Notes under the pieces: model-generated
What the model was told of the DNA's origin: nothing
The model's input: the letters and a program-made list of their open reading frames with translations, nothing else
The model's database searches: none
Position numbers and translations under genes: made by a program
Shown: positions 1 to 15,825 of the stretch, one piece after another
Layout of the letters: the number at the start of each line of letters is the position of its first letter
Position numbering within the stretch: the first letter of the stretch is position 1
Virus record (IMG/VR): IMGVR_UViG_3300021478_000027
Length of the DNA: 20,000 nucleotides
Strand: one strand, 5' to 3'
Origin: an uncultured virus (IMG/VR IMGVR_UViG_3300021478_000027)
Taxonomy: Duplodnaviria > Heunggongvirae > Uroviricota > Caudoviricetes

Positions 1-1151
1 TGCATCAGAACGTTGGTTACCGATCCGCCCGCTATCTGAGCGATGGCAATCGCCCCCGTACCATCGCCGTCAATCTTTACAATCGGGACCGAAACGTACC
101 CGCTACCACCATCGTGAATGGTGATGCCCGTGATTTGCCCGAAATTAACATTGCAGAACCCCGAGAACCCGGTGCCGCCCGGTATAGCCGGCGTACCGGG
201 AATGCCCGGATCACCTACCACGATCGTCGGCGGTGACGTATAGCCTTGGCCGGCATTGATGATCGCCACTGCCGTGATTGACCCATTCTGAATGGCGAGA
301 CTAGCCGAGGCCCCGGAGCCACCGCCGCCGGTAAAAATGGCGAAAGCACGACCCGTATAGCCTGTTCCCGGATTGTTGATAATGACTTGGGAGACCCCGC
401 CCTGAGTCTGCTGCGGCGCCTGATTGATCGGGTCCGCTATCGCCTGATTGTCGCTGCCGCCGCCTTGAACCGTGACCGCCACAATCGAATCAACGGTAAA
501 TCCCGACCCCGGATTGGTGACAAGAACCTGTTGAACCGAACCATTTTCAAGGATCGCCGTGAAGGCGCCAGTCGAGACAAAGCCTGTGTCCGCCTGAACA
601 GTGAAGGTTGGATTTGACGTATAGTTACTGCCCCCATTATCGACAGAGACCAGAGGGCCGAAACTTCCTGCCGTAAACAGATTGGTGCCGTCCCACAACC
701 AGTAGCCATTCTCCTGCGCCGCGGCGAGAATCAGGTACTGGCTGCCCCATTGGCTAAAACCTATCGTGGTCGAGGGATTCAGAATGGTCCCCGCGTTTCC
801 TATCGTCGTTTGCATCCCGGTGTTCGCATCCACTTGCGTCAGCGAACCATTGGTCGTCAGAACCACGATGTACTGCGTGTCGAAGATGTTAAAGAACTGA
901 AACCAGACAACCACGCCCGCCGCGAATGAGGTCAGATTGCCCCCGGTCCCCGGCAATGTCCGCATGTTGCTTGGGCCGAATGGGATAAAACCGTCCATCC
1001 AAAACGCTTCACCGCGAGCAATCGCGGGCCGCGGCGGCTTTGTATTGAGCGTGCTGAACTCCTCCCACACAAGCGGGAAGAAACCTGACGGAAAGCCGGA
1101 ATTGTCGCCCTGTTCGCCAGGGGAATTAAGTTTGCTGTCGCCGCCGGCCAT
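1..1151 (-). CDS. Tail nozzle/stabilisation-type virion protein, N-terminal part (runs off the window start); contains GxGY-repeat modules
   Basis: Not in the ORF track. Read by hand from the ATG at 1151 (TAATG overlap with the upstream stop): MAGGDSKLNSPGEQGDNSGFPSGFFPLVWEEFSTLNTKPPRPAIARGEAFWMDGFIPFG...NGYWLWDG...NPGSGF...NPGTGY...NAGQGYTSPPTIVV...DGGSGYVSVPIVKI, open to position 1. Position after the adaptor genes fits a podovirus nozzle (inference). Confidence 0.7.
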   Translation of the reverse strand, partial: MAGGDSKLNSPGEQGDNSGFPSGFFPLVWEEFSTLNTKPPRPAIARGEAFWMDGFIPFGPSNMRTLPGTGGNLTSFAAGVVVWFQFFNIFDTQYIVVLTTNGSLTQVDANTGMQTTIGNAGTILNPSTTIGFSQWGSQYLILAAAQENGYWLWDGTNLFTAGSFGPLVSVDNGGSNYTSNPTFTVQADTGFVSTGAFTAILENGSVQQVLVTNPGSGFTVDSIVAVTVQGGGSDNQAIADPINQAPQQTQGGVSQVIINNPGTGYTGRAFAIFTGGGGSGASASLAIQNGSITAVAIINAGQGYTSPPTIVVGDPGIPGTPAIPGGTGFSGFCNVNFGQITGITIHDGGSGYVSVPIVKIDGDGTGAIAIAQIAGGSVTNVLM

Positions 1152-2071
1152 TAGTAACGGCCGTACGGGTTGATCATCCTGCCAGGACGTGCATACCCGC
1201 TGTAGCGATGGACCATATTATCGTAAAGGTCCAAGTAAAACTTGGCAGCGTTAAGGTTCTGGAGTTCGAGATAGCACATGTGCGCAGCGTAAAACGGTAC
1301 CGTCTCAGTCCAAGGTCCAGGGATAGCCTCGTCGTCCTGATCGGTTACTAAGTCAGCAGGCAAGCAGAACGTATCCCATTCCATCTGATAGACAGTAGAG
1401 GGGATCGGGTACATATAGAGCGAGCCACCTTCGCCTTGCCCATACTGCGAGAAAATGGTGCTGACGTACAGGTATTGTTGCGGATACTGGCGTATCATCG
1501 CCTGATACGTCGTGAACGGATAACACGGAAGCGAGTAACGATAGTTGGCGAAAATGAAACTGACGCCGTGAACCGCGAAGATACCCTTGACCCCAGCGAA
1601 CTGGCTCAACGGCACGTCCCTAAAGTTATAAATCTCCTGCTGCTGCGACGTGACGTTGATCGGGTTGGTACTCGCGACCGCTGTCGCCCCATGCCCAGTA
1701 GGGTCGGTAATCGTGACCTCGGGCTGGAAGTAGCCATCACCGCCATAAGAGACGCTGATATTGCTGATCTGCCCGCCGATCTGCTGCGCTAAGGCGGTGG
1801 CCTGCTGGCCGCGCGGGTTCGGCAATGCACCGCTAGGGAAGTCCGGCGGGGTGATCGTCACGGTGGGGTTCGTGTAGCCGGTGCCAGGCGTCAACACTTG
1901 GATCGTAACGATCGACCCGGAGACGGGCGTCAGGATGCGGATGCACTGCGTCCGCATCGCCACCTCACGGCGGGCGCGGTTGATGTAGCTGTCGATATCC
2001 CCGATATCGATAAATTTCTGCTTGGTGTCGCGAATAAAGCGTTGCACCTGTTTCCTGTATTCGTTCAGCAT
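1151..2071 (-). CDS. Head-tail adaptor/tail ring protein, paralog 3, with an inserted GxGY module
   Basis: ATG at 2071 in a TGATG overlap. Shares YINxAR..A....CIR and L..D....A(I/L)P.(P/L)WT..VP(F/Y)YAA motifs with the two upstream genes. Helical N-terminus and C-terminal Tyr/Ala helix resemble podovirus adaptors. Confidence 0.7.
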   Translation of the reverse strand: MLNEYRKQVQRFIRDTKQKFIDIGDIDSYINRARREVAMRTQCIRILTPVSGSIVTIQVLTPGTGYTNPTVTITPPDFPSGALPNPRGQQATALAQQIGGQISNISVSYGGDGYFQPEVTITDPTGHGATAVASTNPINVTSQQQEIYNFRDVPLSQFAGVKGIFAVHGVSFIFANYRYSLPCYPFTTYQAMIRQYPQQYLYVSTIFSQYGQGEGGSLYMYPIPSTVYQMEWDTFCLPADLVTDQDDEAIPGPWTETVPFYAAHMCYLELQNLNAAKFYLDLYDNMVHRYSGYARPGRMINPYGRY

Positions 2072-2775
2072 CACGCATTCTCGCGGGGCGGAGTGATGCC
2101 GAGTCGGTTAGCTAGGAACGGATCTGGCGACTGCTGATAAATAAACGGCTCAACCGATGGGGTTGCGCCGCCACGTGCCTTCTGCACGAACATCCCGTAC
2201 AGCTTCATCATCTCCGCCGCGGCCTGCGTATTTTGTGCGGTCAGCAACGCGAAATAGGCCGCGTAGTACGGCACCGCATCGGTCCAAAGATAGGGCAGTG
2301 CTTCTGACGTATTATCGTCAATTAATGGGGAGGGGAAACAGACTGTATCGAGCGACAACGTGTAGGGGCCATCCGGCAAATTAATCCAGAGTGTGCCGAG
2401 CGCACCTTGCCCGAATTGAGCAAAAACCTCGGGTGCCTTCGCTACCTGTTGATTACAGACATAGTAGACAAAGAACCACTCCCACGGGCGAGGCCGTACA
2501 AGAACAGCACCATTACCGAGCGCATAGTTAGCCATCCGAACATTCAAGACCCCCTGCACGCCCTGCACGCCAGCAGGGAATGTGATGGAAGAAAACGGAT
2601 ACTCCTGCGTCGGGGCATTGACCGCCAACGTCGCGTAAACACGGATGCACTCGGCTTCGCCCGCAATCTGCCCCCGCGCCGTGTTGACGTAGGTCACGAG
2701 GTCGGCAAGGTTGTATTTCGCCTCTCCGACATCATTGAGCAGCAGCTGGGTCTGTTGGAGATAACTGTTCAGCAT
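2071..2775 (-). CDS. Head-tail adaptor/tail ring protein, paralog 2
   Basis: ATG at 2775 in a TGATG overlap; motifs YVNTARGQIAGEAECIR and LIDDNTSEALPYLWTDAVPYYAA. Confidence 0.7.
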   Translation of the reverse strand: MLNSYLQQTQLLLNDVGEAKYNLADLVTYVNTARGQIAGEAECIRVYATLAVNAPTQEYPFSSITFPAGVQGVQGVLNVRMANYALGNGAVLVRPRPWEWFFVYYVCNQQVAKAPEVFAQFGQGALGTLWINLPDGPYTLSLDTVCFPSPLIDDNTSEALPYLWTDAVPYYAAYFALLTAQNTQAAAEMMKLYGMFVQKARGGATPSVEPFIYQQSPDPFLANRLGITPPRENA

Positions 2776-3491
2776 CACCGACCCGCCTGCGCCTGGGCTT
2801 GCGGCGCTTCAGTCAACGACGTTTTCCCGGCCGCGTCTTTCGTTCCCATGTCGCCCGGAAGGTTACCCGGCAGCACGCTCGGCGACGACATCTGACGGGC
2901 GCGACGCATCAAGGCCGAATAGCGCGCCAGCATCTTGTCCGCGTCGCCCTGCCGCTGCATGTTCTGCATGCCCAACCACGCCGCGTAGAACGGCACAGCA
3001 TCGGTCCAGGGATAGGGGATCGCCTCTACTGTCGTGTCATCGATCAGCGCGATCGGCGTGGCAACAACATCCAAAAGGGCGGCGGTATTGACGTTTGGCG
3101 TCGGATAAAACCACAGGTTACCTGCCTCGCCCTGGCCCAATTGCGCCATTGCCGTTGGCTGCCCCGTTACCGCCGAATTGAGGAGGTAGTAGTTGAAGTA
3201 CCAAACCCAATTACGAATAGCCAAACGACTCGTACCAACGGCACCCATCCGAACCGAAATCACCGCGTTCGCCCCAGAAACCGCAGTCAACGAAATAGCG
3301 GAAAAGGGATACACAAAGGTGCCCGCCACGATCGGCAGCGTCGCCGACACGCGGATGCACTCGCCCTCGCCCGCAACCTGGTTGCGCGCCACGTTGATGT
3401 AAACGGTGGCGTTCGCAGACGAGATGAGCGGGATCGGCGAGTTCGGCGCCTGGATCAGCTCATTGAACTGCGTGAGATACGCTGCAAGCAA
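2775..3491 (-). CDS. Head-tail adaptor/tail ring protein, paralog 1
   Basis: TTG start with GGGAGGG SD; motifs YINVARNQVAGEGECIR and LIDDTTVEAIPYPWTDAVPFYAA. Confidence 0.7.
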   Translation of the reverse strand: MLAAYLTQFNELIQAPNSPIPLISSANATVYINVARNQVAGEGECIRVSATLPIVAGTFVYPFSAISLTAVSGANAVISVRMGAVGTSRLAIRNWVWYFNYYLLNSAVTGQPTAMAQLGQGEAGNLWFYPTPNVNTAALLDVVATPIALIDDTTVEAIPYPWTDAVPFYAAWLGMQNMQRQGDADKMLARYSALMRRARQMSSPSVLPGNLPGDMGTKDAAGKTSLTEAPQAQAQAGR

Positions 3492-3494
3492 CCG

Positions 3495-3510
3495 ACCCTC
3501 CCATGAGGGT
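3495..3510 (-). promoter_or_regulatory. 6-bp hairpin (ACCCUC-augg-GAGGGU) covering the SD of adaptor paralog 1
   Basis: Perfect inverted repeat accctc/gagggt between the upstream stop and the TTG start. Confidence 0.45.
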
Positions 3511-4631
3511 TACGTCGGCTGGATGTAGACAGTCGTATTCACGCCCCCCATCGTCGGCACGATCGACGCCAGCGTGGTACCCCCAAGCACCATGACTGTC
3601 GGTGTACCGAAGAACAGCCCACTATCCACCGGAACGATCGAGGTGATCGTCGTGCCCGTCAAGGTCGCAGTACCCTGCGCCGCCCGTGGAATAGGCGCCG
3701 TCAACTCACCCAGCGGATTGCGCCATGTCGCCGTCGCCGTGGGAATGCCGCCGAACGATTGAACACCATTCTGACCAGCGGCAAAACCAGCGCCAATCGC
3801 CGCGATCGACGTACTCGCGATGGAAAACACCGGGACGACCGTAGCGACAGCGCCAGACCCCGCGCCCGTGATCGCCAACGACGGCATCGTCGCAACTGCG
3901 GTGCCGCTATTGATGCAGATAACACCGCTCAGAAGTCCCGCGCCCGTCAGCGCAAGCGACGTAACTGAGCTGTACGTGACCGACCCGGCAATAAAGTTCG
4001 GGTCATACGGACTCGGAAGCATCAGCAATGGCGGCGCGCTCGGATATCCCGCACCTTGATTGACCATCGTGATCGTGCTGACTGAGTTGCTTGAGATCGA
4101 CGCGACCGCAGTCGCGGCATAACCCGGAGGCGGCGGCGACGGGATAAAGCACAGCGGCGCTATCGTATAACCACCGCCGGCTACAATCGATGTCACGCTA
4201 GCGACAGTCGTATTGACGAGACCGCCAACGATTGCGTTCCAGGTCGATCCCCCGGTTGACGGCGTGACGCTGGTCGTCGCCTCCACATAAGTAGCCGTAC
4301 CAGAATTGGTAACGATCGCGGCGACCGGGCACCCCGTCATATTCGCGACACGGTAGTTGAAGCCATCGCTCGTCGCGCGGCGCGAACCGACCAAGCCGGT
4401 GTTAAACCCTTCCCAACTCAACGTGACCGGGTTGAACCACTGGAGAAAGCCATACGACCCAGCGTTCACCATAGTGCCGCCGGTCGGATTCGCAGGAACA
4501 GGCAGCGCCTGTCCCGGAGACAAAGTAACGGCATTCGTCGCCGGCTGAAACGTGACGTTTGCCAGGTAGGACGGATACAGTGCCTGCGGCGGCGGGAGGT
4601 TCTGCCCAGGACCAGCCAACCCTTGTGCCAT
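3510..4631 (-). CDS. Minor virion/capsid-associated structural protein (Gly/Ser/Thr/Ala-rich, GxGY modules)
   Basis: 373 aa, strong RBS (taaGGAGcaacataaATG), first structural gene after the MCP; contains AGGGYTIAP and NQGAGYPSAP. Confidence 0.65.
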   Translation of the reverse strand: MAQGLAGPGQNLPPPQALYPSYLANVTFQPATNAVTLSPGQALPVPANPTGGTMVNAGSYGFLQWFNPVTLSWEGFNTGLVGSRRATSDGFNYRVANMTGCPVAAIVTNSGTATYVEATTSVTPSTGGSTWNAIVGGLVNTTVASVTSIVAGGGYTIAPLCFIPSPPPPGYAATAVASISSNSVSTITMVNQGAGYPSAPPLLMLPSPYDPNFIAGSVTYSSVTSLALTGAGLLSGVICINSGTAVATMPSLAITGAGSGAVATVVPVFSIASTSIAAIGAGFAAGQNGVQSFGGIPTATATWRNPLGELTAPIPRAAQGTATLTGTTITSIVPVDSGLFFGTPTVMVLGGTTLASIVPTMGGVNTTVYIQPT

Positions 4632-4636
4632 TTATG

Positions 4637-4666
4637 TTGCTCCTTACGCAACGAGCATGGTATTGT
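4637..4666 (+). promoter_or_regulatory. Putative sigma70 promoter for endonuclease 1
   Basis: TTGCTC (4637-4642), 18 nt, TATTGT (4661-4666), preceded by an extended -10 TGn; RBS GGAGGT at 4680-4685. Confidence 0.45.
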
Positions 4667-5273
4667 GGTGACGTGACATGGAGGTAATTACCCCAATGCC
4701 AAAAGCTGCTAATTTGCCTGCTAAAGATTGCGCCGTTTGCGGAACGGAGTTCATCCCAGCGCACAGTCGATCCCGATACTGCTCAAAGCAGTGCCTATGG
4801 AAGTCGAAGAACGATAGATACCGTCTCGCAAACCCCGAGAAGTACCTAGCGCATTCTCGCGCCTCATATGCAAAGCACCGAGAAAAGCGGCGAGCATACA
4901 TGCGAGAGAGATACGCAAAAGACCCAGAAGCGTGGTACAGCCGCAACGAGCTATATCGCTTGAATACTAGAAACGAACGTCCTTGGTACATGTTGCTGCG
5001 ATACGCCGAGAAACGAGCCGAGAAAAAGTCCGTCCCGTTCGACTTAACGGACGAATGGGCCGTATCTGCCTGGACCGGTGCATGCGCGGTATCTGGATTG
5101 TCGTTCGTCACTGGGCACAAAGGCCATGGCCCGCGACCACGTACGCCAAGTATAGACCGCATCGAACCATCACTTGGATATGTACAATCCAACTGTCGAT
5201 TCGTCATCCATGCCGTCAATGCCCTGAAGGGCGACGGAACGGAAGAAGAAATGATGGAAGTGGTGCGATCCAT
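4644..5273 (-). CDS. Antisense 'bridge' ORF over endonuclease 1 (209 aa, no recognisable protein family)
   Basis: Starts shortly after the MCP stop, in the MCP frame, and ends at the TAA abutting the next gene's GGAG. Codon choice in the endonuclease avoids creating stops in this frame. Confidence 0.4.
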   Translation of the reverse strand: MDRTTSIISSSVPSPFRALTAWMTNRQLDCTYPSDGSMRSILGVRGRGPWPLCPVTNDNPDTAHAPVQADTAHSSVKSNGTDFFSARFSAYRSNMYQGRSFLVFKRYSSLRLYHASGSFAYLSRMYARRFSRCFAYEARECARYFSGFARRYLSFFDFHRHCFEQYRDRLCAGMNSVPQTAQSLAGKLAAFGIGVITSMSRHHNTMLVA

Positions 5274-5292
5274 ATTACTTCGTCATTCCTAG
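4696..5292 (+). CDS. Free-standing His-Me finger (HNH-like) homing endonuclease with an N-terminal Zn ribbon
   Basis: CAVCGTEF...YCSKQC zinc ribbon; CAVSG...PSIDRIEPSLGYVQSNCRFV...N..K nuclease motif. Start moved to ATG 4696 based on the GGAGGT RBS. Confidence 0.75.
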   Translation: MPKAANLPAKDCAVCGTEFIPAHSRSRYCSKQCLWKSKNDRYRLANPEKYLAHSRASYAKHREKRRAYMRERYAKDPEAWYSRNELYRLNTRNERPWYMLLRYAEKRAEKKSVPFDLTDEWAVSAWTGACAVSGLSFVTGHKGHGPRPRTPSIDRIEPSLGYVQSNCRFVIHAVNALKGDGTEEEMMEVVRSILLRHS

Positions 5293-6335
5293 AATGTATT
5301 CCCGCCAATGCCGGTTATTATAGCGTTACTTGACGGCTTGCTGCTCACAACATTGTACCCGAGTACGACAACCCCCTGCTGTCCGATCTGACCCAGCGGG
5401 ACCAGCGAGTAGAACCCGCTAAAATCGAACGCCGCGTCTTCCGACAGGTACATCGAGGTGTATTTCGAGTTGATGAAATAGGCCGTGCCCTGCGGGCAGA
5501 AGTGATCGGCAAAAATCGGCACGCCTGCGACATTGAGGTTCGGGAACGCCGAGCGAACCGGCGTCGCCATCGTGTACTCGTTGCCAGGCCGGGTAAAAAT
5601 CTGCTCGACGCCCACAAAGCTGGTGTTCAGCGTCGCAAAGTCGCCGGGGGACATCACGACCATCGTCGGCGACTCACCACCAGCCAGGTCAGTGATCTGA
5701 ATCAGCGCCGCAGCCATCGCCGAGCGGCTGAACCCAGCCGTCGCGACCGTGCCCGTCCCCGAAACAATCGCCGTGCCAGCAATGACATTGCCCTTCCAGG
5801 ACGTGTTGCCGGGCGATGTGCGGTTGATGCCGCCGTATGTCGCCACCGTCGCGCCGTTGTCGAAGCCATCAACGAAGCTATTCGGCAGCAGCGTGTTCGC
5901 CGTGTTGTTCGAGAACAGCAACCCGCCGACATTCTGGACGGTGACCGACCAAACGTCGTTCATCCGCGCCTTCAAGAGCGAAATCTCGCGATCCGTCGCC
6001 TGGATCACCGTCTCGCCAAACGGCAGCGGCACCGGCACAACCCAGTAACAGGTAGGGAACTGCGCGTTTTGCACACCGGGCGTCACGACAGGGCTATTAA
6101 ATCCACCGCCATAGCCTGTAAATTGCCCCTGGACCATCGATTGGCCCTGAATTGGAATTGTGATTTGAGATAAACCGCCAGCACTTTTCTGTGCAGCGCC
6201 AAGTAAATAGAATAATGTTGGCGTGGCGAAGTAAATTTGGACAAACAACCTTGGGACGAAAGCCCTCCTTGTCGCCGCGGTGAGTTCGTTATATAACGAA
6301 CCTGTAGGTACTGCACCCTGACCAGGAAGCGGCAT
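5289..6335 (-). CDS. Major capsid protein
   Basis: 348 aa. The N-terminus ELTAATRRAFVPRLFVQIY..TP...L...Q..GG.S.ITIP.QG matches my recollection of Bcep22-like podovirus MCPs. YGGINR and GVPIFADHFCP.G.AYFINSKY fit an HK97-type fold. RBS GAGGG. Confidence 0.88.
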   Translation of the reverse strand: MPLPGQGAVPTGSLYNELTAATRRAFVPRLFVQIYFATPTLFYLLGAAQKSAGGLSQITIPIQGQSMVQGQFTGYGGGFNSPVVTPGVQNAQFPTCYWVVPVPLPFGETVIQATDREISLLKARMNDVWSVTVQNVGGLLFSNNTANTLLPNSFVDGFDNGATVATYGGINRTSPGNTSWKGNVIAGTAIVSGTGTVATAGFSRSAMAAALIQITDLAGGESPTMVVMSPGDFATLNTSFVGVEQIFTRPGNEYTMATPVRSAFPNLNVAGVPIFADHFCPQGTAYFINSKYTSMYLSEDAAFDFSGFYSLVPLGQIGQQGVVVLGYNVVSSKPSSNAIITGIGGNTF

Positions 6336-6339
6336 TTTA

Positions 6340-7212
6340 TCAGTTCCCTCTTACTTGACAACGCCGCAGGGTAGGGGTATACCAGTAATTGCCAAACCAC
6401 TGGAGAAACCCATGCCCACGACCACACTCATTACTACAGAATGTGCCAATTGCGGCGGAACGTTCTCGGCTAGAGCAAAGGCGGGAGAAACAAAGCGCTA
6501 TTGCTCTAAGGCGTGCATGATCGCTTACGAAGCAAAACATGGTAGGCCAGGCCGAGCGCGCTCTGAACGAATTAAGTTCACTTGCCAGAATTGCAGCAAG
6601 GAATTTCTGATGCTTCCCGGATTTCTTAATGCCTATCGCATTAAGCACGGGCGCGACCCGCTGTATTGTTCGAGGCAATGCCACGGCATCGCACGGCGAA
6701 CACATACCGCCGATAACGAACAGTTTTTCTCTTGCGAGCAATGCAGAAAGGAAGTTGCGCGGCGCCGATACCAACGTTCTACAGGCCACAACAAGTTTTA
6801 TGCTCAGCAACGCTTTTGTAGCCCCGCCTGCAAGCACTCTTGGTTTGCCAGCCGCGCTGAACAACGATTTTTGAACGGCGAAATTGGGCGCCACGTAAAG
6901 CGGCACGGTTACGTCTGGCTGTCTTTGCCGGCCAATCTCAATGGCGGACAGAAAGGAGAAGTTCTTGAGCACCGCTACGTCATGGAGCAGCACCTTGGGC
7001 GGAAGCTTCTGCCTGAAGAGACGGTGCATCACGTCAACGGCGACAGACAGCACAACAAGATTGAAAACCTTGAGCTTTTTTCTAGCCGCCACGGTCCAGG
7101 ACAGCGCGTAATTGACAAAATCGCTTTCGCGATCGAGATGCTTCGCCTGTACCCCGACTTCGCCGCCGAGCAGGGCGTCAAATTGGTTGATGTCGAGCGC
7201 AGCGACTGACAT
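6340..7212 (-). CDS. Antisense 'bridge' ORF over endonuclease 2 (~290 aa, no recognisable family)
   Basis: ATG overlaps the upstream TGA (TGATG); the frame stops 4 nt before the MCP ATG. Confidence 0.4.
   Translation of the reverse strand: MSVAALDINQFDALLGGEVGVQAKHLDRESDFVNYALSWTVAARKKLKVFNLVVLSVAVDVMHRLFRQKLPPKVLLHDVAVLKNFSFLSAIEIGRQRQPDVTVPLYVAPNFAVQKSLFSAAGKPRVLAGGATKALLSIKLVVACRTLVSAPRNFLSALLAREKLFVIGGMCSPCDAVALPRTIQRVAPVLNAIGIKKSGKHQKFLAAILASELNSFRARSAWPTMFCFVSDHARLRAIALCFSRLCSSRERSAAIGTFCSNECGRGHGFLQWFGNYWYTPTLRRCQVRGN
6355..6383 (+). promoter_or_regulatory. sigma70-type promoter for endonuclease 2
   Basis: TTGACA (6355-6360), 17 nt, TATACC (6378-6383); RBS GGAG at 6402-6405 before ATG 6412. 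Confidence 0.65.
6412..7209 (+). CDS. Free-standing HNH homing endonuclease with three Zn-ribbon repeats
   Basis: Three CxxC...(Y/F)CSxxC units, then EHRYVMEQHLGRKLLPEETVHHVNGDRQHNKIENLELF (HNH_3-type motif). Start moved to ATG 6412. Confidence 0.85.
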   Translation: MPTTTLITTECANCGGTFSARAKAGETKRYCSKACMIAYEAKHGRPGRARSERIKFTCQNCSKEFLMLPGFLNAYRIKHGRDPLYCSRQCHGIARRTHTADNEQFFSCEQCRKEVARRRYQRSTGHNKFYAQQRFCSPACKHSWFASRAEQRFLNGEIGRHVKRHGYVWLSLPANLNGGQKGEVLEHRYVMEQHLGRKLLPEETVHHVNGDRQHNKIENLELFSSRHGPGQRVIDKIAFAIEMLRLYPDFAAEQGVKLVDVERSD

Positions 7213-7391
7213 CACTGCCCCTTCGGCCCTGTAGACTGGGCGTTAGGCGCGTGCTCAACATTCTTCTCGGGAAGCGGTGCGCCAACGCGCTCGCCCTTGA
7301 TGTTCGCGGCAGACTCCTTGCGCGTCCAAACGGTAAACGCCGGATCGGACGGCGTAGCTTTGGGGGGTGCGGGAGTGCGAAAGATCGACAT
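7212..7391 (-). CDS. Small 59-aa protein MSIFRTPAPPKATPSDPAFTVWTRKESAANIKGERVGAPLPEKNVEHAPNAQSTGPKGQ
   Basis: Not in the ORF track. TGATG-coupled to the scaffold-like gene; similar to 7960-8136. Confidence 0.7.
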   Translation of the reverse strand: MSIFRTPAPPKATPSDPAFTVWTRKESAANIKGERVGAPLPEKNVEHAPNAQSTGPKGQ

Positions 7392-7960
7392 CAGAGGCCC
7401 CGCGCTTCCTTGAGCGCGTTGGCGATGGCGGGACCAAGGAACTCGTCCTCGCGACCTTCAAACAATGGCTTCAGATCGGGCGCGTTCTTGACTTCCGGCG
7501 AGGCCCAATCCCAACGCGCACCGCCCGAAATCAGCGGCTCCGGCGGCGGGTTGATGCGTTCGTAAAGGGCAGCTGCCGCCTCATGGTCGGCGATGCCACG
7601 TTCTTCCATGAGTTTTTCGAGTTCGCCGAGACCTTCGTCGGTGTAGCCCTGTGCGCGGACCTTGGCGCGGCCTTCGGACCATTTCGTCTGAAGCTTCTGC
7701 TGCGCCTCAGCGGCCTCACGGGACTTCTTGTCCTCAACGAGCATGTTTTTCAGCTCGTCGAAGCCGCTGCGAAATTCCCCAAGCTGCTTGTCAACTTCGT
7801 CGCGAATCCTGACTTCAGGGCCGGCGCGATCGGGAGCCGCCAGCGCTACGGCTTTCTGAGCGAGCGCGCGGGCTTCCGGATGCTTCTCGACCTGGCCGAG
7901 AACGGTCTGGATCTGGCGGAGGTTCGCCAGCTCGTTTTCGTCAATCTCGACGGTCGGCAT
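7391..7960 (-). CDS. Putative capsid scaffolding protein
   Basis: 189 aa, charged and helical/coiled-coil-like; upstream of the MCP; TAATG-coupled. Confidence 0.6.
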   Translation of the reverse strand: MPTVEIDENELANLRQIQTVLGQVEKHPEARALAQKAVALAAPDRAGPEVRIRDEVDKQLGEFRSGFDELKNMLVEDKKSREAAEAQQKLQTKWSEGRAKVRAQGYTDEGLGELEKLMEERGIADHEAAAALYERINPPPEPLISGGARWDWASPEVKNAPDLKPLFEGREDEFLGPAIANALKEARGL

Positions 7961-8136
7961 TAAGCCTTGCTCCCCGCATTAGGAACGTGCTGGATCGAAT
8001 TGACCGGCGAGGACGAAGGGGTCGGGATGTGGCCGGTGCGCGCACCGATCTCGTTCTCCTTCATCGAAACGCGGACGATCTGCGCGTCCTGCTTCGGGAG
8101 CGACTTGGTGGAATCCTGAAAGATGTTTACGGGCAT
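7960..8136 (-). CDS. Small 58-aa protein MPVNIFQDSTKSLPKQDAQIVRVSMKENEIGARTGHIPTPSSSPVNSIQHVPNAGSKA
   Basis: RBS GAGGA before ATG 8136; the true start lies inside the 228-aa track ORF. Confidence 0.7.
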   Translation of the reverse strand: MPVNIFQDSTKSLPKQDAQIVRVSMKENEIGARTGHIPTPSSSPVNSIQHVPNAGSKA

Positions 8137-8147
8137 GCTGTTGTCCT

Positions 8148-8561
8148 CTATGCGGCCATTGGCGGCGGCGGTGGCGGCGGGGCAGCGGGAGCACCGCCAC
8201 CCATCTGGGCCGCTTGCGCGGCGGCGTTCTGCGGGGCCATTTGGCGCTGCTGCATCAGCATCTTCTGCGCCTCGGTCATCTGCATTCCGGGAGACACCGC
8301 GCCTTGGGGAACGTGCTTCGCCAACTTGTTGACGGCTTCGCGCAAGTCGCGAGAAATGTCTGAGCCTATGGGAAATGCCATCATCAGTTGCTGGATGGCA
8401 GTGGCATGCACCGCCAGCTTCGCCAAAGCGGCGGCTTCGATTCCGCGATTTGGCGAGGGCGCTGACGCAGGGGACGGGCCCGTCGCCTGCCCCGGAGGCG
8501 GTGCCCCTGGAGCCGGTACCGGACCACCCTGCGGCGGCATGCTGGCGGGCATATCCGGCAC
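8148..8561 (-). CDS. Pro/Ala/Gln-rich head-module protein
   Basis: 137 aa with low-complexity ends around a short helical core (LAKLAVH...DLREAVNKLAKHVP). Exact start uncertain. Confidence 0.65.
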   Translation of the reverse strand: MPDMPASMPPQGGPVPAPGAPPPGQATGPSPASAPSPNRGIEAAALAKLAVHATAIQQLMMAFPIGSDISRDLREAVNKLAKHVPQGAVSPGMQMTEAQKMLMQQRQMAPQNAAAQAAQMGGGAPAAPPPPPPPMAA

Positions 8562-8564
8562 GGA

Positions 8565-8606
8565 TTACTTCCGGCGGTGCTTGCGCCGACGATTGCGAGG
8601 CAGCAT
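8565..8606 (-). CDS. 13-aa Arg/Lys-rich micropeptide MLPRNRRRKHRRK
   Basis: GGAG SD 7 nt before ATG 8606; TAA at 8567-8565, 3 nt before the next GTG start. Confidence 0.6.
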   Translation of the reverse strand: MLPRNRRRKHRRK

Positions 8607-8654
8607 AGCCTTGCTCCATCTCAAGAGTTGCACACGTCCCCGCCACCCAAGGAG

Positions 8655-8734
8655 GAGAGACGGTCTGACGAGGACAAAATCCATATGGAGTAGAGACGGC
8701 TAGACACGGTACTAGGGAGTGATGTAAAAACGGT
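8655..8734. repeat. Four imperfect 10-bp direct repeats ending in ACGG(T/C) in the divergent intergenic region
   Basis: GAGAGACGGT 8655-8664, TAGAGACGGC 8691-8700, TAGACACGGT 8701-8710, TAAAAACGGT 8725-8734; palindrome TCCATATGGA at 8680-8689. Confidence 0.55.
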
Positions 8735-8747
8735 CAGGGATGCTCGG

Positions 8748-8945
8748 ATGATACAATCGCGACGCAAGCTAGGAGCCAAGCAAGCGGCTCATGCACTTGG
8801 CGTCAGCCTAAAGACGCTGGCCACATGGAGGCGTCTAAAGCTTGGCCCGCCGTTTTTCAAAGTGAGTAGAAATCTTTGCCTATATGATGAAGAGGAGCTA
8901 GATCGCTGGCTCCAAAAAACGCGAGTGGACCCAAATGGGAGCTAA
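8748..8945 (+). CDS. AlpA/excisionase-like (MerR-type winged HTH) DNA-binding protein
   Basis: QAAHALGVSLKTLATWRR..LGPPFFKV....LY..EELDRWL pattern. Confidence 0.8.
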   Translation: MIQSRRKLGAKQAAHALGVSLKTLATWRRLKLGPPFFKVSRNLCLYDEEELDRWLQKTRVDPNGS

Positions 8946-9120
8946 AGACTTCACTTCCGAAAAAGGGGCCAAGGAACTTTGCTCTAGAATCGTCGAATAT
9001 TGGAAAAATCAGGGATTTTCAAAGGTCATGGCGGCACCGGTTCCGCTCAACACGGTGGCGCGCTGGTCAGACAACTGGGGCATAAAATCCAACATCGGGC
9101 TTAATGGGCCACCGGCATGA
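8935..9120 (+). CDS. Small hypothetical phage protein
   Basis: 61 aa, overlaps both neighbours (ATGA overlap with the GT2 gene). Confidence 0.6.
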   Translation: MGAKDFTSEKGAKELCSRIVEYWKNQGFSKVMAAPVPLNTVARWSDNWGIKSNIGLNGPPA

Positions 9121-10037
9121 AGGTCTCCTTCATCGTTCCCGCGCGGAATAAAGAGCATTTTATCCGCAATACGGCGCAATCGGTTCTCTTACAAACCTAC
9201 TCGCCGATGGAAATCGTCTTTAGCGACCAGGGGTCGACCGACGATACGCTCGGTATCCTGCTCGATATGGCCGAAACCTATAACGGCCCCAACACCGTCC
9301 GCGTTATCCAATGCCCCCATACCGAGCGAAAGGGTATGCCGGGGCTTAATGCTCACCTCAACTGGCTACACGGCCAGATCGATAGCGATATCGTCATCAT
9401 GTGCTCGGCGGACGATCTGAACAATTCAAAGAGAGCAGAATTAACGGTAAAGGCATTCGAGGAACACGATCCGTCTTACGTCAATACCGGGGTCATCTAC
9501 CTCAACCCAAACGACCCAGAAGACCTCCCAAAGGTCACTGCATTCCCCGACAAGTCGAGTCGCTGGCTCCAGCCTGCCGAAACAATCAAGCACCAGATCG
9601 GATCATCCGGCTCATCCGCGTGGGCACGCGACTTGTACGAAAAGCACGGACCGCTGGAAGGTTGCGAGCAGCAGGACATGATCCTGCCGATGATGGCGCT
9701 GATCGAGCGCGGCATCTATTACGTGGATGAGCCGCTGCACACCTACATCGCGCACGCCTCACTCGATAACACCGGGTTCATCGGCCAAATCAATGCCGCC
9801 GAGAACGAAGTACATAAGATGCAACTCGTCGAGCTGAACGATTTTATCAACGTCTACAACTGGACAAACATCCTGCGGCGCTGGACCGAGCTGCCGGAGC
9901 AATTCGCCGCGCTCGCCAGCGATGACGCAGCCATGAACGCCCTCACGGAAAAGATCAGCAACTGTGCTGATGCGTGGTCCAACGTGCGCAACCACATGAT
10001 CATCAACGATGTCTACCCGATAAAGATGAGGACGTAA
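9117..10037 (+). CDS. Glycosyltransferase family 2 (GT-A fold)
   Basis: VSFIVPARN...SVLLQTY..EIVFSDQGSTDDT N-terminus and SADD (DxD-like) motif. Confidence 0.88.
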   Translation: MKVSFIVPARNKEHFIRNTAQSVLLQTYSPMEIVFSDQGSTDDTLGILLDMAETYNGPNTVRVIQCPHTERKGMPGLNAHLNWLHGQIDSDIVIMCSADDLNNSKRAELTVKAFEEHDPSYVNTGVIYLNPNDPEDLPKVTAFPDKSSRWLQPAETIKHQIGSSGSSAWARDLYEKHGPLEGCEQQDMILPMMALIERGIYYVDEPLHTYIAHASLDNTGFIGQINAAENEVHKMQLVELNDFINVYNWTNILRRWTELPEQFAALASDDAAMNALTEKISNCADAWSNVRNHMIINDVYPIKMRT

Positions 10038-10228
10038 TGCGTGATCCCTTTAAGGCTGATATCCGCCCAGACAAGTGGATGGACTGGATTCGTATTACCG
10101 AAGAGCAATTCGGCACAGTTTTGCGATTATCCTCAATGGGTGAAAGTTTGCATCTGACAGCTCGAACGGCTATGGAGCTGAAGGCTGTAATCGACGAATG
10201 GCTCACGCTTCCAATGCCGATGCAATGA
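10037..10228 (+). CDS. Small hypothetical protein (63 aa, MRDPFKAD...)
   Basis: TAATG overlap with GT2 and ATGA overlap with GT9. Confidence 0.6.
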   Translation: MRDPFKADIRPDKWMDWIRITEEQFGTVLRLSSMGESLHLTARTAMELKAVIDEWLTLPMPMQ

Positions 10229-11265
10229 AGAAGTGGTGCTGCATCTGTCGCTTGGGTAGTATCGGAGATGATTTAATCGTCTCGTCAGTATTACCATTAT
10301 TAAAACGCCAAGGGTACATGATCGAGGTCATGGCGCAGGAGCCGAGCCATGTGGTCTTTGAAAACAATCCGTACATCGATAAGCTCACTGTTCTCAAGAA
10401 ACAGGACTTACCTGATAACAACGCCGACTGGCAAAAATACTTCGTCGGACGCTCCCACGAGTACGATAAGTTCTATCACCTCAGCCACTCCATCGAGTCC
10501 CATGTCGCCTTCCACCCCGACAGCACCTGGTTCTGGTGGCCCGACACATACCGCCGCCAGTTAGCCAACAAGTCGTACCTCGCACTAACCCACGACATCT
10601 GCGAGCTACCGCACGAGTTTGCGCCTGAGTTCTTCCCCACGGAGGAAGAGCGCGACAAGGCGCTGGAGACGAAAGAGAAGATCGGCAAGCAGTTCATCGC
10701 TTGGGTGATTGCCGGCTCGCGGCTCGATAAGCTCTATCCGTACAGCGCGATGGCGGTGGCGCGACTGATCGTCGAGACGGGGCTGCCGGTCGTGATGATG
10801 GGTGGCACACCAAAGGAGTTCGAGGCGGCTCAGTCAATCATGGAGCATGTCGGGCGACAAAACGGAACAACAGATGGGCTGCATCTCGCCATGAAGGCCG
10901 TTGAGGGTGAGAACCTGTGGCCGCTGCGGCGGTCGCTCACCTTCATTCAGTACGCCGACCTGGTGATTTCGCCAGATACGGGGCTGGCTTGGGGCGTCGC
11001 ATCGCGGCCAATGCCCAAGATCATGCTGCTCGGCCACGCCTCACCCTTCAACATCACCCACGGCTGGGTTAATACAACCACGCTACACGCCGATCAGGAG
11101 CGGGTGCCATGCGCCCCGTGCCACCGACTCCACAACGACGCGTCTACCTGCGTCCCAAACAAGGAGAACAACGGCGCGGCTTGCATCTCGGACATCACCG
11201 TTGAAGATATCCTTAAGGCAGCAAAATCATGCTTAGTCCCGCCCCATACGACCCTAAATGGCTAA
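10225..11265 (+). CDS. Glycosyltransferase family 9 (heptosyltransferase-like, GT-B fold)
   Basis: RLGSIGDDLI, NNPYIDK, ADLVISPDTGLAW and a C-terminal CAPC...C...C cluster. Start moved to ATG 10225. Confidence 0.85.
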   Translation: MKKWCCICRLGSIGDDLIVSSVLPLLKRQGYMIEVMAQEPSHVVFENNPYIDKLTVLKKQDLPDNNADWQKYFVGRSHEYDKFYHLSHSIESHVAFHPDSTWFWWPDTYRRQLANKSYLALTHDICELPHEFAPEFFPTEEERDKALETKEKIGKQFIAWVIAGSRLDKLYPYSAMAVARLIVETGLPVVMMGGTPKEFEAAQSIMEHVGRQNGTTDGLHLAMKAVEGENLWPLRRSLTFIQYADLVISPDTGLAWGVASRPMPKIMLLGHASPFNITHGWVNTTTLHADQERVPCAPCHRLHNDASTCVPNKENNGAACISDITVEDILKAAKSCLVPPHTTLNG

Positions 11266-11495
11266 CCCATGAATGGGTTGACTCACCAACCAATTCGTAC
11301 TGGACGCCAAAACCCAAGGAGCAAAGAATGTTTGGCGCAGAATACAAGCTCGTTGCCAATGCCACGGTCCTGACCGCAGACGACGTTCTGGAGCGAGAAA
11401 TCCGCTCGCGCGAAAGCAACTCCGATGATGTATTGTTCCTGCTGAGGCGTCTCGATGAGGCGCGCGCGAAGGATGGGGCAGCGGAGACAGTCTGA
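11229..11495 (+). CDS. Hypothetical protein
   Basis: 88 aa filling the gap; its TGA overlaps the next ATG. Start uncertain. Confidence 0.5.
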   Translation: MLSPAPYDPKWLTHEWVDSPTNSYWTPKPKEQRMFGAEYKLVANATVLTADDVLEREIRSRESNSDDVLFLLRRLDEARAKDGAAETV

Positions 11496-11890
11496 TGGCA
11501 AATATTAGCGCTTATGCCGGCAAAGCGATGCTGGATTGGACATTGCTCGGCGCCACGCCGACGCGGCCCGCCAATAGCTATGTCGGCATCGGGTTGGCAG
11601 CACCGAACAGCACCAACGGCTCTGAAATCGCGACCGGATCGGGCATGACGCGGCAAACCGTGGCATTTTCCGCCGCCGGATCGCCCGCCAATCTCGCCGG
11701 AAACAACGTTGCAATGACCTTTGGCCCCATTTCCGCCGCTGCCACGGTGATCGGCGTCCAGATTTGGGACACGGGAGCTGCTACGGTCGGCAATATGCTC
11801 TATTTTGCTTCGTTGACCACCTCACGCACCATGAACGGCGGCGATTTCCTATTATTCAGCGTCGGATCGCTCGCTGTCTCGTTAACTTAG
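11495..11890 (+). CDS. Small beta-rich phage fibre-associated structural protein
   Basis: S.Y....LD......P...YV......P....E.......R..V.F.......N.....F.........I.D.....GN.L....L........GD...F..G.L...L pattern of a widespread ~130-aa phage fibre protein family. Confidence 0.7.
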   Translation: MANISAYAGKAMLDWTLLGATPTRPANSYVGIGLAAPNSTNGSEIATGSGMTRQTVAFSAAGSPANLAGNNVAMTFGPISAAATVIGVQIWDTGAATVGNMLYFASLTTSRTMNGGDFLLFSVGSLAVSLT

Positions 11891-11908
11891 GCACGGGCAA
11901 ATGCCGAC

Positions 11909-12127
11909 GTGCTTACAATAGAGAAATACGTCGATCTACGTTTGCGCTTCTTTGAAGGGAAGAACATCGACCTAGTCGGCGCGCGCATGGAAAAAATGGT
12001 TCATGACGCGGGTTACGTTTTCCGATGGCTTGAACTCGATACAAAGATCGCGCCGGAGTGGCGAGATGGCCGTGTCAACGTGCTAGTTAACAAGGCGCAC
12101 GTCATCACGCGGATCACGGTAGGTTGA
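11909..12127 (+). CDS. Potato-I/I78 peptidase-inhibitor-like small protein
   Basis: C-terminus EWRDGRVNVLVNKAHVITRITVG matches the D(Y/F)R..R.N...d....i.....G inhibitor signature. Confidence 0.5.
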   Translation: MLTIEKYVDLRLRFFEGKNIDLVGARMEKMVHDAGYVFRWLELDTKIAPEWRDGRVNVLVNKAHVITRITVG

Positions 12128-12128
12128 C

Positions 12129-15100
12129 ATGACGATCTCACGGGTCGGGGCAGCCACCGGAACGACCACTTGTACTGTGCCAACTCACAGTATCGGCGAC
12201 CTTATTCTCATCGGCGCTTTCCGCCAGACAACCGCGACATCGCCGTCTTTGCCCGCTGGCTATACGAGTATTGCAAACGGCACAGCAACAAGTTGCGCGT
12301 ACCGTTGCGGCTACAAGATCGCGACTGCAACGAACGACAGTTCGGGAACCTGGACAAATGCGACCGCGATAACGTGCGTTGTTTATACGTCAGACCAAAT
12401 CGCCGCTGGTGGCGCAATCAACATCGGCGGACACCTTGGGAGTAGTGCGGCCACCAACCCGGTTAGCTATGGCGGCATTACGCTAAACTACACTGACGGC
12501 GCATCGTGGGTCTTTGCATTCAGCGGAAATCGGAGCCCCACTAATTCGGTCCAGACGCATCCTCCAACTGGGATGACGCTCATCGCGAGCAGCGACCTGG
12601 TAAACACCGTTGAAGTCTGCGCATTCGACACCAATGCGGGCGTTTCCAGTTGGTCGACCCAGACCACGACGCTGTCGACCGCGACCGGGTGGGGAACCAC
12701 GGTCGTTGAAATCTTTGAGACCAACTATGCGTCGGCGATCATCAATAGCGTCCAGCACCGCTCGACCAGCTACAACAATGTCGCCGCCGTTAACGAGCCG
12801 CTCGAAAATTTCGCGGTCGCTTTGCCCGATGCGACCCAATCCGGGCAAGGTCTCGTTTGCGCGGTCGCTTATCCTAGCGGCGCGACGCCGAGCATCACAG
12901 ACGACCAGGGCAATACCTGGCCGGCATCCGGCGCAGCGGGCACGGTCACCGCTGATGCTGGCGGCGGGGCGATGGCGATTCAGATTTTCCGCCTCGCCAG
13001 CGCCGCCGCAAATACGCGGATCGTAACGGTCGGTTTTGGCGGTAGCCCGCAGCAGCCAGTCAAAGTGTGGCTGGAGAAGCTTTACAATATCACCGGAACC
13101 GTTAACGGGTCCAAGACTGGAACGAGTTTAAATACGCTCGGCACGGTATCGCCGGGATCGTTCACGCCAACCAACAACAACGCTAATGGCGGTAACCTGA
13201 TCCTGGCCTACATGGTAGCCCAGGGAACGTCCAATAGCACTAACCCGACTGATATCGCCCCGGCGCGGGGGTATTTCCTTCAGGACGCCGACATCGGCTG
13301 GGTCAGCGGCAACGGTATCCCGAGCGCCTCGCAGGCGTTCCTGCAGACGACCGCTGCCGCGACTACGCCGATGTTCACGCTTCAGGGAAGCGGAACAGAC
13401 ACGTACATCGTCGCAGCGATTGCACTCTCGGTCGGGACGCAAGGCTCTGACGACAGTCGAACCAATGGACATATAGATCGGATTATCGAGTACGCCACTA
13501 ATACAGCGGGGTCGCCGTGGAAGAATAAAACCCCGATGAGCGGCACGACCGGCCTGATAATCGGTTTCGTCGCGGGCACACCAACGAATAATACGGTCAC
13601 GTCTGACAACGGAACTAATACCTGGACTACGATTGAAGGGGCAGCCGGGTCACCATATTTTAATTATTTTCAAGGCTTAACGGCTAGTTCTTCGAGAGAG
13701 GTGTCGCAGACATTCACCGGCAGCGGTAATGGCCAATTCGTTTTCTACGATCTATCTAACTTAGATACTGGAACTGCGCCGGTTACGGCTGGAGTTGGCT
13801 CTACAGCGGCAAATAACGTAGCGTCGATTGCAAATCAGCCGAGCATAACGCCGTCGTCAGCTAACGGCGTCGCGTTCGGTAACCTGCAAAATGGTTTGGG
13901 GCCGACGAACGGCATAACCTCACCATCTGGCGCTCTTTTTGACTGTCCGCTTTATCAGACCGGCCAATTTACGTTCACGCAATCTGGTACTACCGCAAAC
14001 GTATCAGCAGTCGCCTGGGGCCAAGTCTACGGTGACGGTATTACAGGGGTAACCGGCTCGGGCGTGGCGAATGGTCAGTCGAATCAATCGGCCACATCAA
14101 GTTCTACCGGTAACCGAACCTTCAACATTAGCCAGACGCTGGGGACCACAACAGGTCATACCACGTCAACCGACAGCTCTAGCGTAAATTGGGGTGAAGG
14201 ACTCGCGCACGTCTTTACGACTAGCACTGCGGCGCTGAATTTTACATGGAACATCGCGAGTCAACCGGCATCGTCTGTGTCATCCACGGCGATTTGGTTC
14301 AAGGCTGCGGCGAGCACAACAAACTGGCAAGGCGCTGCGAATTTCACGGGTGCTGGTGCGTTCACGGCAAACGCCCAGCTTATCGAGGCATCGCAAGCGA
14401 CATTTGCCGGGGCAGGGCTATTCACTGCTAACGCAACGGCGCAGTTCGCAGCACAGGCGACGTTTGGGGGCGCTGGCAGCTTTACTGCCACTGCGACGAT
14501 GCAGTTCGCCGCACAAGCAACGTTTGCCGGGGCCGGTAGCTTTACTGCGACCGGCTTACCCGTCGATTTCGGGTTTGCGAACTTCGCGGGGGCAGGCAGC
14601 TTTACTGCCAATGCTGGACCAGCTGTCCTCGCTGCGGCGGCGAACTTTGGCGGTGCGGGGCTTTTCACCGCCAATGCCCAACTGATCGAGGCTGCGCAGG
14701 CGACATTTGCCGGGGCCGGGTCATTCACGGCTAACGCTACGGCACTGTTTGCGGCGCAGGCCACATTTGCCGGCACAGGTGCCTTTACCGCCAATGCGAC
14801 GACCCAAATCGCCGGTCAGCAGGGCGCGGCAAACTTTAATGGTGCGGGATTATTCACCGCCAATGCCTCACAGCCGCAACGATCAGCGGCTGCTAACTTT
14901 GCCGGAGCAGGGCTCTTCACCGCCAACGCCACCGTGCAGATGGCGGCACAGGCGACATTCGCAGGAACGGGCGGATTCACGGCCACTGCCGCATTGCGCA
15001 TGCAGGCGACGGCCTCGTTTGCTGGCGCTGGTGCTTTTACCGCCAACGGCAATGTTCCACAGCATATCGCCGCGCAGGCCACATTTGCCGGGGCAGGATC

Positions 15101-15593: not shown

Positions 15594-15604
15594 GGAGAAA
15601 CAAC

Positions 15605-15823
15605 ATGCCCAGCATCTTCGATGACCTTAATGCTGTTACCCGAAAAGTTTGTGCCCCAACGCTTGCCCGCCAAATTTTAACGAAATCGATTTTGATTAAA
15701 AACTTGGAGCGTGAGCATCCCCCGATTCCGCCAACATGGCGACAAAAATTCCATTGGTGGTTCCGTGAGAAAAGAATACGCCTTGGTGAAATTATCGCGG
15801 GACAACCATTTAACGAGGATTAG
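15605..15823 (+). CDS. 72-aa protein whose N-terminus resembles the MCP N-terminus
   Basis: Strong RBS (taAGGAGaaacaacATG); MPSIFDDLNAVTRKVCAPTLARQI... Confidence 0.7.
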   Translation: MPSIFDDLNAVTRKVCAPTLARQILTKSILIKNLEREHPPIPPTWRQKFHWWFREKRIRLGEIIAGQPFNED

Positions 15824-15825
15824 AC

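Follow-up and report, generated by a model that had tools for sequence, protein, structure and literature searches.

Antisense nuclease cassettes beside a phage capsid gene carry stop-free operon-strand frames that probably bridge the insert

The DNA analysed here (the window) is a 20,000-nucleotide (nt) stretch of an uncultured Caudoviricetes virus, IMG/VR record IMGVR_UViG_3300021478_000027, in which we studied positions 4,637–7,212. Its minus strand carries a virion operon of a probable scaffold gene, a 59-amino-acid (aa) gene, the gene for the major capsid protein (MCP) and a 373-aa structural gene, joined by stop/start overlaps or short spacers. This operon is interrupted by two plus-strand nuclease genes, one on each side of MCP and both antisense to it. 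Each is overlaid by a long open reading frame (ORF) of the operon strand, here called bridge 1 (over nuclease 1, downstream of MCP) and bridge 2 (over nuclease 2, upstream of MCP; Table 1). A first-pass annotation had proposed that these are dummy frames, kept translated by selfish elements so that ribosomes cross the insert and Rho polarity is avoided.

Two antisense nuclease cassettes and their operon-strand frames

The coordinates first assigned to both bridges and both nucleases hold. The ATG of bridge 2 overlaps the stop of the 59-aa gene as TGATG, and it terminates in a TGA whose end is 4 nt ahead of the MCP ATG (6335). Bridge 2 is in register with nuclease 2 and continues through the putative nuclease 2 promoter and the MCP ribosome-binding site. 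Bridge 1 ends at a TAA that abuts a GGAG and lies 12 nt upstream of the ATG at 4631; it is in frame with MCP and offset relative to nuclease 1. It had been described as starting just after the MCP stop, and its ATG does lie 15 nt downstream, but an additional stop (TGA 5283) sits between the MCP TAG and that ATG. Because this second stop separates the two, bridge 1 would be reached by a restart and not by read-through. A 3-codon ORF (ATG ACG AAG TAA; 5274–5286, minus strand) sits between the MCP stop and the bridge 1 ATG, 2 nt from the former and 1 nt from the latter, and could relay re-initiation to bridge 1.

Table 1 Features of the capsid region and its two inserts
Feature	Position	Strand	Basis
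Virion structural gene (373 aa) that follows MCP; bridge 1 leads into it	3510..4631	-	weak PHROG tail/connector matches; kept after MCP in related loci
Bridge 1 TAA, then directly the GGAG ribosome-binding site of the 373-aa gene	4640..4646	-	sequence
Bridge 1, 209 aa, frame offset from nuclease 1	4644..5273	-	no Pfam or PHROG family
Nuclease 1, 198 aa, N-terminal CxxC zinc motif and PacI-like His-Me finger	4696..5292	+	phage endonuclease PHROGs (phrog_3322, E 5e-24)
CTAG palindrome, overlap of the MCP stop TAG (-) and the nuclease 1 stop TAG (+)	5289..5292		sequence
MCP, 348 aa	5289..6335	-	phrog_9953 major head protein, E 9e-17
Bridge 2, 290 aa, in register with nuclease 2	6340..7212	-	no Pfam or PHROG family
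Candidate sigma-70-type promoter for nuclease 2 (TTGACA, 17 nt, TATACC); would transcribe convergently with the late operon	6355..6383	+	
Nuclease 2, 265 aa, repeated CxxC/YCS zinc motifs and C-terminal HNH_3 domain	6412..7209	+	PF13392, phrog_20891
59-aa gene, TGA overlaps bridge 2 ATG	7212..7391	-	similar small genes in the same place in L001, L002, L014, L019, L388
189-aa probable scaffold, directly before MCP in empty alleles	7391..7960	-	inferred from position and coiled-coil-like make-up

The codon choices of both nucleases are as the first-pass annotation described them. All eight freely choosable codons before Tyr in nuclease 1 end in A; G-ending codons would likewise avoid a stop there, yet none is used. 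Nuclease 2 has 0 TTA, 0 CTA and 0 TCA among its 18 Leu and 14 Ser codons, and nuclease 1 has 2, 3 and 3. Within-gene synonymous permutation of nuclease 1 left its bridge frame open in 64/20,000 cases. For nuclease 2 the probability of an open frame is 0.023 under the codon usage of host genes in the window and 0.003–0.005 under that of co-oriented HNH genes matched for G+C content at third codon positions (GC3). The frames seldom stay open in shuffles. Taken singly, these figures make the frames improbable but do not decide the matter, the odds for nuclease 2 being modest; it is the comparison of homologues that makes the case strong, and the bridges are confirmed well beyond chance.

Both nucleases have a predicted homing-family nuclease domain with an intact predicted active site. 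Nuclease 2 matches PF13392 above the cut-off (E 4e-9) and phrog_20891 (E 4.5e-23), with H187, H206, H207, N215 and N219 invariant in 15 sequences. In nuclease 1 the His-Me finger residues are D154, R155, Y162, N166 and N175; C130, D154, Y162, N166 and N175 are invariant across 61 sequences. The best match of its family profile is PacI (3ldy; E 0.005, weak), and its predicted structure, built from a 61-row alignment with a predicted local distance difference test (pLDDT) score of 94.8, finds 3ldy as its best fold match (E 0.0026). According to the part of PMC5714182 that treats it, the PacI active site has a Tyr in place of His, which the invariant Asp, Tyr and two Asn of nuclease 1 fit. Like this PacI-type His-Me finger (group 20; PMC5714182, 3ldy), nuclease 1 has Asp-Arg for Asp-His and an invariant loop Tyr; unlike it, nuclease 1 has an N-terminal zinc motif and a long helical arm, the similarity is weak (E 0.003–0.005, 19% identity), and PacI is a bacterial restriction enzyme whereas nuclease 1 belongs to a mobile phage cassette. 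A GGAGG (4680–4684) lies upstream of nuclease 1 and a GGAG (6402–6405) upstream of nuclease 2. We infer that both cassettes encode active nucleases and are capable of homing.

The promoter assigned to nuclease 2 is a candidate, absent from a stricter promoter scan. A TTGAC[ATC] motif lies upstream of the nuclease in 15/28 antisense cassettes, compared with 1/24 co-oriented genes and 5/56 empty sites; the antisense cassettes are therefore probably transcribed from their own promoters, convergently with the operon. A minus-strand promoter match at 6361–6334, overlapping the MCP ATG, is within chance (1 found, 1.9 expected).

Optional presence is evident among 80 loci with a related MCP, most of which are empty at both sites and have short spacers there. 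Upstream of MCP we found nine antisense relatives of nuclease 2 and one remnant, three co-oriented nucleases and 56 empty sites; downstream, 12 antisense relatives of nuclease 1. Carriers are not clustered on the MCP tree (70 rows, quick tree), requiring 6 and 7 changes against 6.7 and 5.9 for shuffled labels. Optional presence at fixed sites, empty alleles and scattered carriers fit the distribution of homing cassettes, and on this comparative evidence both inserts are probably mobile free-standing nuclease cassettes, probably homing endonucleases. An intein was considered and rejected: the inserts are intergenic, and the bridges have their own start and stop and no Pfam match.

Decayed cassettes also occur: L071 retains the HNH part only, with an open frame from a TGATG overlap, and L001 and L392 hold short remnants. 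A third site for antisense nuclease-1 relatives lies after the homologue of a 307-aa gene (window 1151–2074), occupied in L174, L020 (a second copy), L177, L191, L073, L169, L061, L182 and L079; all three measurable cases there are bridged by two ORFs.

Stop avoidance follows nuclease orientation, and bridge ends are positioned

The homologue set comprised 356 nuclease ORFs, which fell into 285 clusters at 80% identity; nuclease-1 relatives were recovered by an alignment-based search, a single-protein scan having given none. At the scaffold–MCP site, occupied by the nuclease-2 family, we scored stop avoidance as the number of TTA, CTA and TCA codons in the nuclease core. None occurs in 28 of 30 antisense clusters, against 4 of 24 co-oriented ones (Fisher 6e-9), so that homologous antisense cassettes keep the frame and co-oriented genes at the same site do not. 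As a share of Leu and Ser codons, these three make up 4/806 in antisense genes (no TCA) and 52/455 in co-oriented genes. The difference persists after GC3 matching (21/23 antisense and 2/13 co-oriented clusters open), and matched co-oriented genes would lead one to expect 1.9 open clusters among the 30. Other A-ending codons (GCA, GGA, CGA etc.) are used freely in antisense nuclease-2 genes. In the same phages, where the bridge of antisense nuclease-1 genes mostly lies in a different frame, those genes use TTA, CTA and TCA in 173/732 cases. In one of the two exceptions (L043) the offending codon is the upstream gene's own stop, and L322, which is co-oriented but within the antisense clade, has two stops.

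At under 60% identity, fourfold-degenerate sites in this family are near saturation (0.31–0.34, 0.30 expected), and columns of invariant Leu switch among CTT, CTC, CTG and TTG; the open frame therefore reflects continuing selection and not inherited inertia. TAT and TAC number 63 and 207 in antisense genes and 74 and 69 in co-oriented genes; a general shift to C confounds any sign that codons rare in the bridge are avoided.

The ends of the bridges are positioned as well. Among 26 of 28 rows (two without an MCP start were dropped), the bridge stop falls -25 to +4 nt from the MCP start in 24, compared with 10/52 for the other frames (p 4e-10); the two exceptional bridges stop 6–9 nt before a small intervening ORF. 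To reach this point the bridge extends 58–105 nt beyond the nuclease core, through the nuclease promoter. At the other end, a start codon lies -1 to +12 nt from the upstream stop in 21 of the 22 directly measurable rows, the remaining six of the 28 having lacked upstream DNA (three) or having a small intervening gene (three). The start junctions themselves vary (TAATG, TGATG, TAG-G-ATG, TAGTG). In L310 and L312 an ORF of 33–34 aa with a common core, ‘LVTA.SYL..GP’, lies between bridge and MCP.

In the nuclease-1 family, 23 of 31 antisense clusters were measurable, the junctions not having been located in the other eight. A stop-free stretch of 354–696 nt ending at the downstream start is present in 18/20 cassettes beside MCP, 13 of them with p<0.05, and in 3/3 at the third site. 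One or two coupled ORFs are enough to cross the insert in 10/23 cassettes, where 0.8 would be expected. Relative frames 0, 1 and 2 are all represented among these bridges. Four cassettes collected after these tests (L388, L389 and L390 twice), none more than 64% identical to an earlier one, are all bridged. In L388 and L390 the bridge is upstream of MCP; L390 and L389 have one downstream, which in L389 consists of two ORFs that overlap by 62 nt.

Unrelated phages provide further cases. In L269 (GC3 0.29), L287 (0.42), L157 and L124, where nuclease orientation was assigned by a rough amino-acid score, an open in-register frame crosses an antisense HNH gene; both of its ends are within ~15 nt of the neighbouring genes in the first three, and its stop is 35 nt short in L124. 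These bridges are likely of independent origin. One of these bridged HNH genes precedes a probable terminase gene. L136 has a 203-aa antisense HNH gene (2914–3525, plus strand) in register inside a 1345-aa host ORF (171–4209, minus strand), with no stop in the host frame.

A proposed function for the bridges and its alternatives

We propose that such cassettes, inserted antisense between genes of a coupled virion operon and equipped with their own putative promoter and ribosome-binding site, would each place 650–900 nt of foreign sequence in the late mRNA. Selection would keep one operon-strand frame stop-free, with its start at the upstream stop and its stop at the next gene's start. A ribosome ending the upstream gene would then restart, cross the insert while making a junk polypeptide, and terminate at the point at which, in the empty allele, the upstream gene stops. 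MCP and the following gene would stay expressed, through re-initiation coupling together with cover against termination or decay, and with downstream expression preserved the cassette could be tolerated without splicing.

We regard it as probable that the bridges restart translation, cross the insert and preserve expression of MCP and the next gene. The mobility pattern, the orientation-tied stop avoidance, the positioned ends and a product without constraint are established here. Translation of the bridges, and a benefit to downstream genes by coupling, antipolarity or mRNA protection, are what these patterns suggest. With rather less assurance, we also lean towards a broader view, in which bridges would constitute a third general route, beside RNA and protein splicing, to the neutrality of homing endonuclease genes (HEGs) in essential operons. 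On that view they would have had separate origins, in at least two families of nucleases and in several unrelated phages, could use any one of the three antisense frames, and would be kept for nothing but the act of being translated.

Several observations weigh against this interpretation. The 30 antisense clusters are related, the largest clade holding 23–24 of them, and the orientation p-values therefore overstate independence. One of these clusters (L085), the second exception to stop avoidance, has three stops just after the upstream gene's stop, with a 43-nt gap, and no null was computed for the position of bridge starts. MCP usually has a good ribosome-binding site of its own, so strict coupling may not be needed. 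Bridging is also weaker in the nuclease-1 family than in the nuclease-2 family: 13/23 cassettes lack a two-ORF chain, and in 11 of these 13 the terminal ORF starts 179–367 nt after the upstream stop, while in the other two it is short (starts taken from rows other than L016 and L020); longer chains, of up to seven ORFs, are not enriched (12, with 9.7 expected). Antisense HNH genes of unrelated low-GC phages are mostly unbridged (1/13 bridged below GC3 0.4). In phage T4 the antisense nuclease gene segD is unbridged, its longest operon-strand stop-free stretch being 79 codons. Finally, the inserts show no enrichment in C on their operon strand (median C-G skew -0.05 and -0.03).

This last point bears on the first-pass annotation, whose overall interpretation is partly supported. 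Neither of two computational outcomes that it had named as refuting, shuffled genes often staying open or homologous antisense cassettes with interrupted frames, was obtained. The dummy nature it ascribed to the frames agrees with the saturation of fourfold sites, with bridge identities close to those of shuffled genes and with the low-confidence model of the bridge. Its appeal to Rho polarity finds no support: the inserts are not C-rich, and the 13 nuclease-1 cassettes above tolerate an uncovered stretch. Six binned contigs point to Acidobacteriota (four), Hyphomicrobium and Patescibacteria, by which the host is not settled. Since the inserts are not C-rich and the host is not established, Rho is not singled out among the possible benefits.

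The alternative that fares best holds that the translated frame mainly manages an antisense clash, with ribosomes shielding the late mRNA from pairing with the convergent nuclease transcript, and hence from double-strand cleavage, or damping nuclease expression. The convergent TTGAC-type promoter beside the MCP ribosome-binding site in 15/28 antisense cassettes would suit it, as would the partial bridges over ~55–80% of the insert that are common in the nuclease-1 family. Such a clash alone leaves unexplained why bridges start at the upstream stop and stop at most 25 nt from the next start (24/26). We consider it unlikely as the main explanation, though it is compatible with translational bridging and does not exclude it.

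A little less likely again is that the bridge is a real overprinted gene for a functional protein, such as a nuclease inhibitor or an accessory factor. Precedent exists in IS5, where the ins5CB ORFs likewise lie opposite the mobility gene of a selfish element; in the part of PMC11677980 concerned with them, their products (Ins5B/Ins5C) are reported to act in transposition, stimulating it, and, unlike the bridges, they are not tied to a host's flanking stop and start. Bridges of the nuclease-2 family are always in the same frame, and their products share 26% identity (21–32%). This identity exceeds that of synonymous shuffles by 1.6 points (0.016), about the same as the 1.2 points (0.012) found for the unselected antisense frame of co-oriented genes, and one column is invariant among 24 bridge-2 sequences. 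The predicted structure of bridge 2 (24 homologues) has a pLDDT of 43.7 and a predicted template modelling score of 0.20, compared with the pLDDT of 94.8 for nuclease 1; an Atlas model of the product (pLDDT 0.30) gave no match above 0.79. The second frame thus does not carry the protein-level constraint of a functional antisense overlapping gene. Saturation at fourfold sites, a product that does not fold, and the variety of frames and split ORFs among nuclease-1 relatives all indicate that selection acts on openness and not on the protein; the bridge product is probably not functional.

That the bridges are shadow ORFs arising from codon bias in GC-rich genes is very improbable. Open in-register antisense frames are a known effect in such genes (as described in part of PMC3454372), 9/27 co-oriented HNH genes with a GC3 over 0.7 have open frames too, and some host genes in the window lack TTA, CTA and TCA. 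Codon bias does not account for the contrast between GC3-matched antisense and co-oriented clusters or for bridges at GC3 0.48, 0.42 and 0.29; it cannot position starts and stops, nor explain the offset frames under within-gene permutation.

The least plausible alternative, that the inserts are spliced out as RNA or crossed by stop read-through to give an extended MCP, could draw on bridge 1 being in frame with MCP and on introns in phage capsid genes (a title cited in PMC10448857), but positions 4000–9000 gave no Rfam match at E<=1 that would indicate a group I or II intron, the inserts, coding almost throughout, leave no space for a ribozyme, MCP and bridge 1 are separated by two stops, and relatives differ in frame and between them have all three stop codons. 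Recoded stops are ruled out, as MCP relatives end in TAA, TAG and TGA.

Comparison with known systems and genomic setting

The closest positional parallel is T4 segD, a free-standing nuclease gene lying antisense between genes 23 and 24 (PMC2988022). Like the cassettes described here, it is intergenic, beside the major capsid gene and opposite to the operon; unlike them, it encodes a GIY-YIG nuclease and has no identified promoter in the account consulted (PMC2988022). The same source discusses the need of HEGs to minimise harm to their neighbours and describes stop/start overlaps for co-oriented genes such as mobE, with no antisense dummy ORF in the parts examined. HEG-islands resemble the present locus in that two nuclease genes flank an essential capsid gene (PMC10448857); antisense, orientation and overlap do not appear in the main text of that paper, and no second frame is mentioned in the parts examined.

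In mechanism, the nearest relative is the ShiLan domain, a hidden out-of-frame HNH in actinophage methylases (described in part of PMC11855218). It too is a splicing-free HNH insertion in which a second frame is kept stop-free, there for read-through of the host frame. The ShiLan insertion differs in lying within a non-essential gene, on the same strand, with the junk sequence forming a loop of the host protein (PMC11855218), whereas the inserts in the window are intergenic and antisense, in an essential operon, and are covered by an independent ORF that has a start and a stop of its own. They thus share a stop-free second frame over an HNH gene and lack the same-strand, out-of-frame, in-gene insertion. 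The terms antisense, reverse, opposite and complement occur nowhere in PMC11855218. The L136 case parallels the ShiLan arrangement in lying inside a gene but is antisense.

We found no description of antisense bridge ORFs in the literature searched, which covered few subscription journals and no supplements. What is new here is the same-site orientation control, the statistics of bridge ends, and a second nuclease family that uses other frames. If the proposed function is correct, bridging would be a splicing-free strategy by which selfish nucleases persist in essential operons. It would also offer a clear example of selection for the translation of an ORF and not for what it encodes, and a source of raw material for de novo overlapping genes. 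Empty, co-oriented and antisense alleles all occur at one site, so single changes could test what untranslated mRNA costs a phage operon. For annotation, long operon-strand ORFs of this kind can be called in place of the real nuclease; the arrangement also suggests a way to insert non-polar antisense cargo.

The phage has no cultured close relative that we could find, and its MCP is 35% identical to two GenBank phage major capsid proteins. Contigs of relatives from two DNA runs cover parts of the window. One low-depth contig (run X2) skips 448 nt of nuclease 1 (window 4677–5124), possibly a degenerate allele in this single contig. Further along the window, a plus-strand block (8748–16554) separates a probable portal gene from the rest of the minus-strand operon; in related loci the portal homologue lies ~2–5 kb before MCP. 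By their motifs we take the contents of this block to be a small helix-turn-helix-like ORF, two glycosyltransferase-like ORFs, a methyltransferase-like ORF and, presumably, a 1154-aa Ala/Gly/Thr-rich repeat protein.

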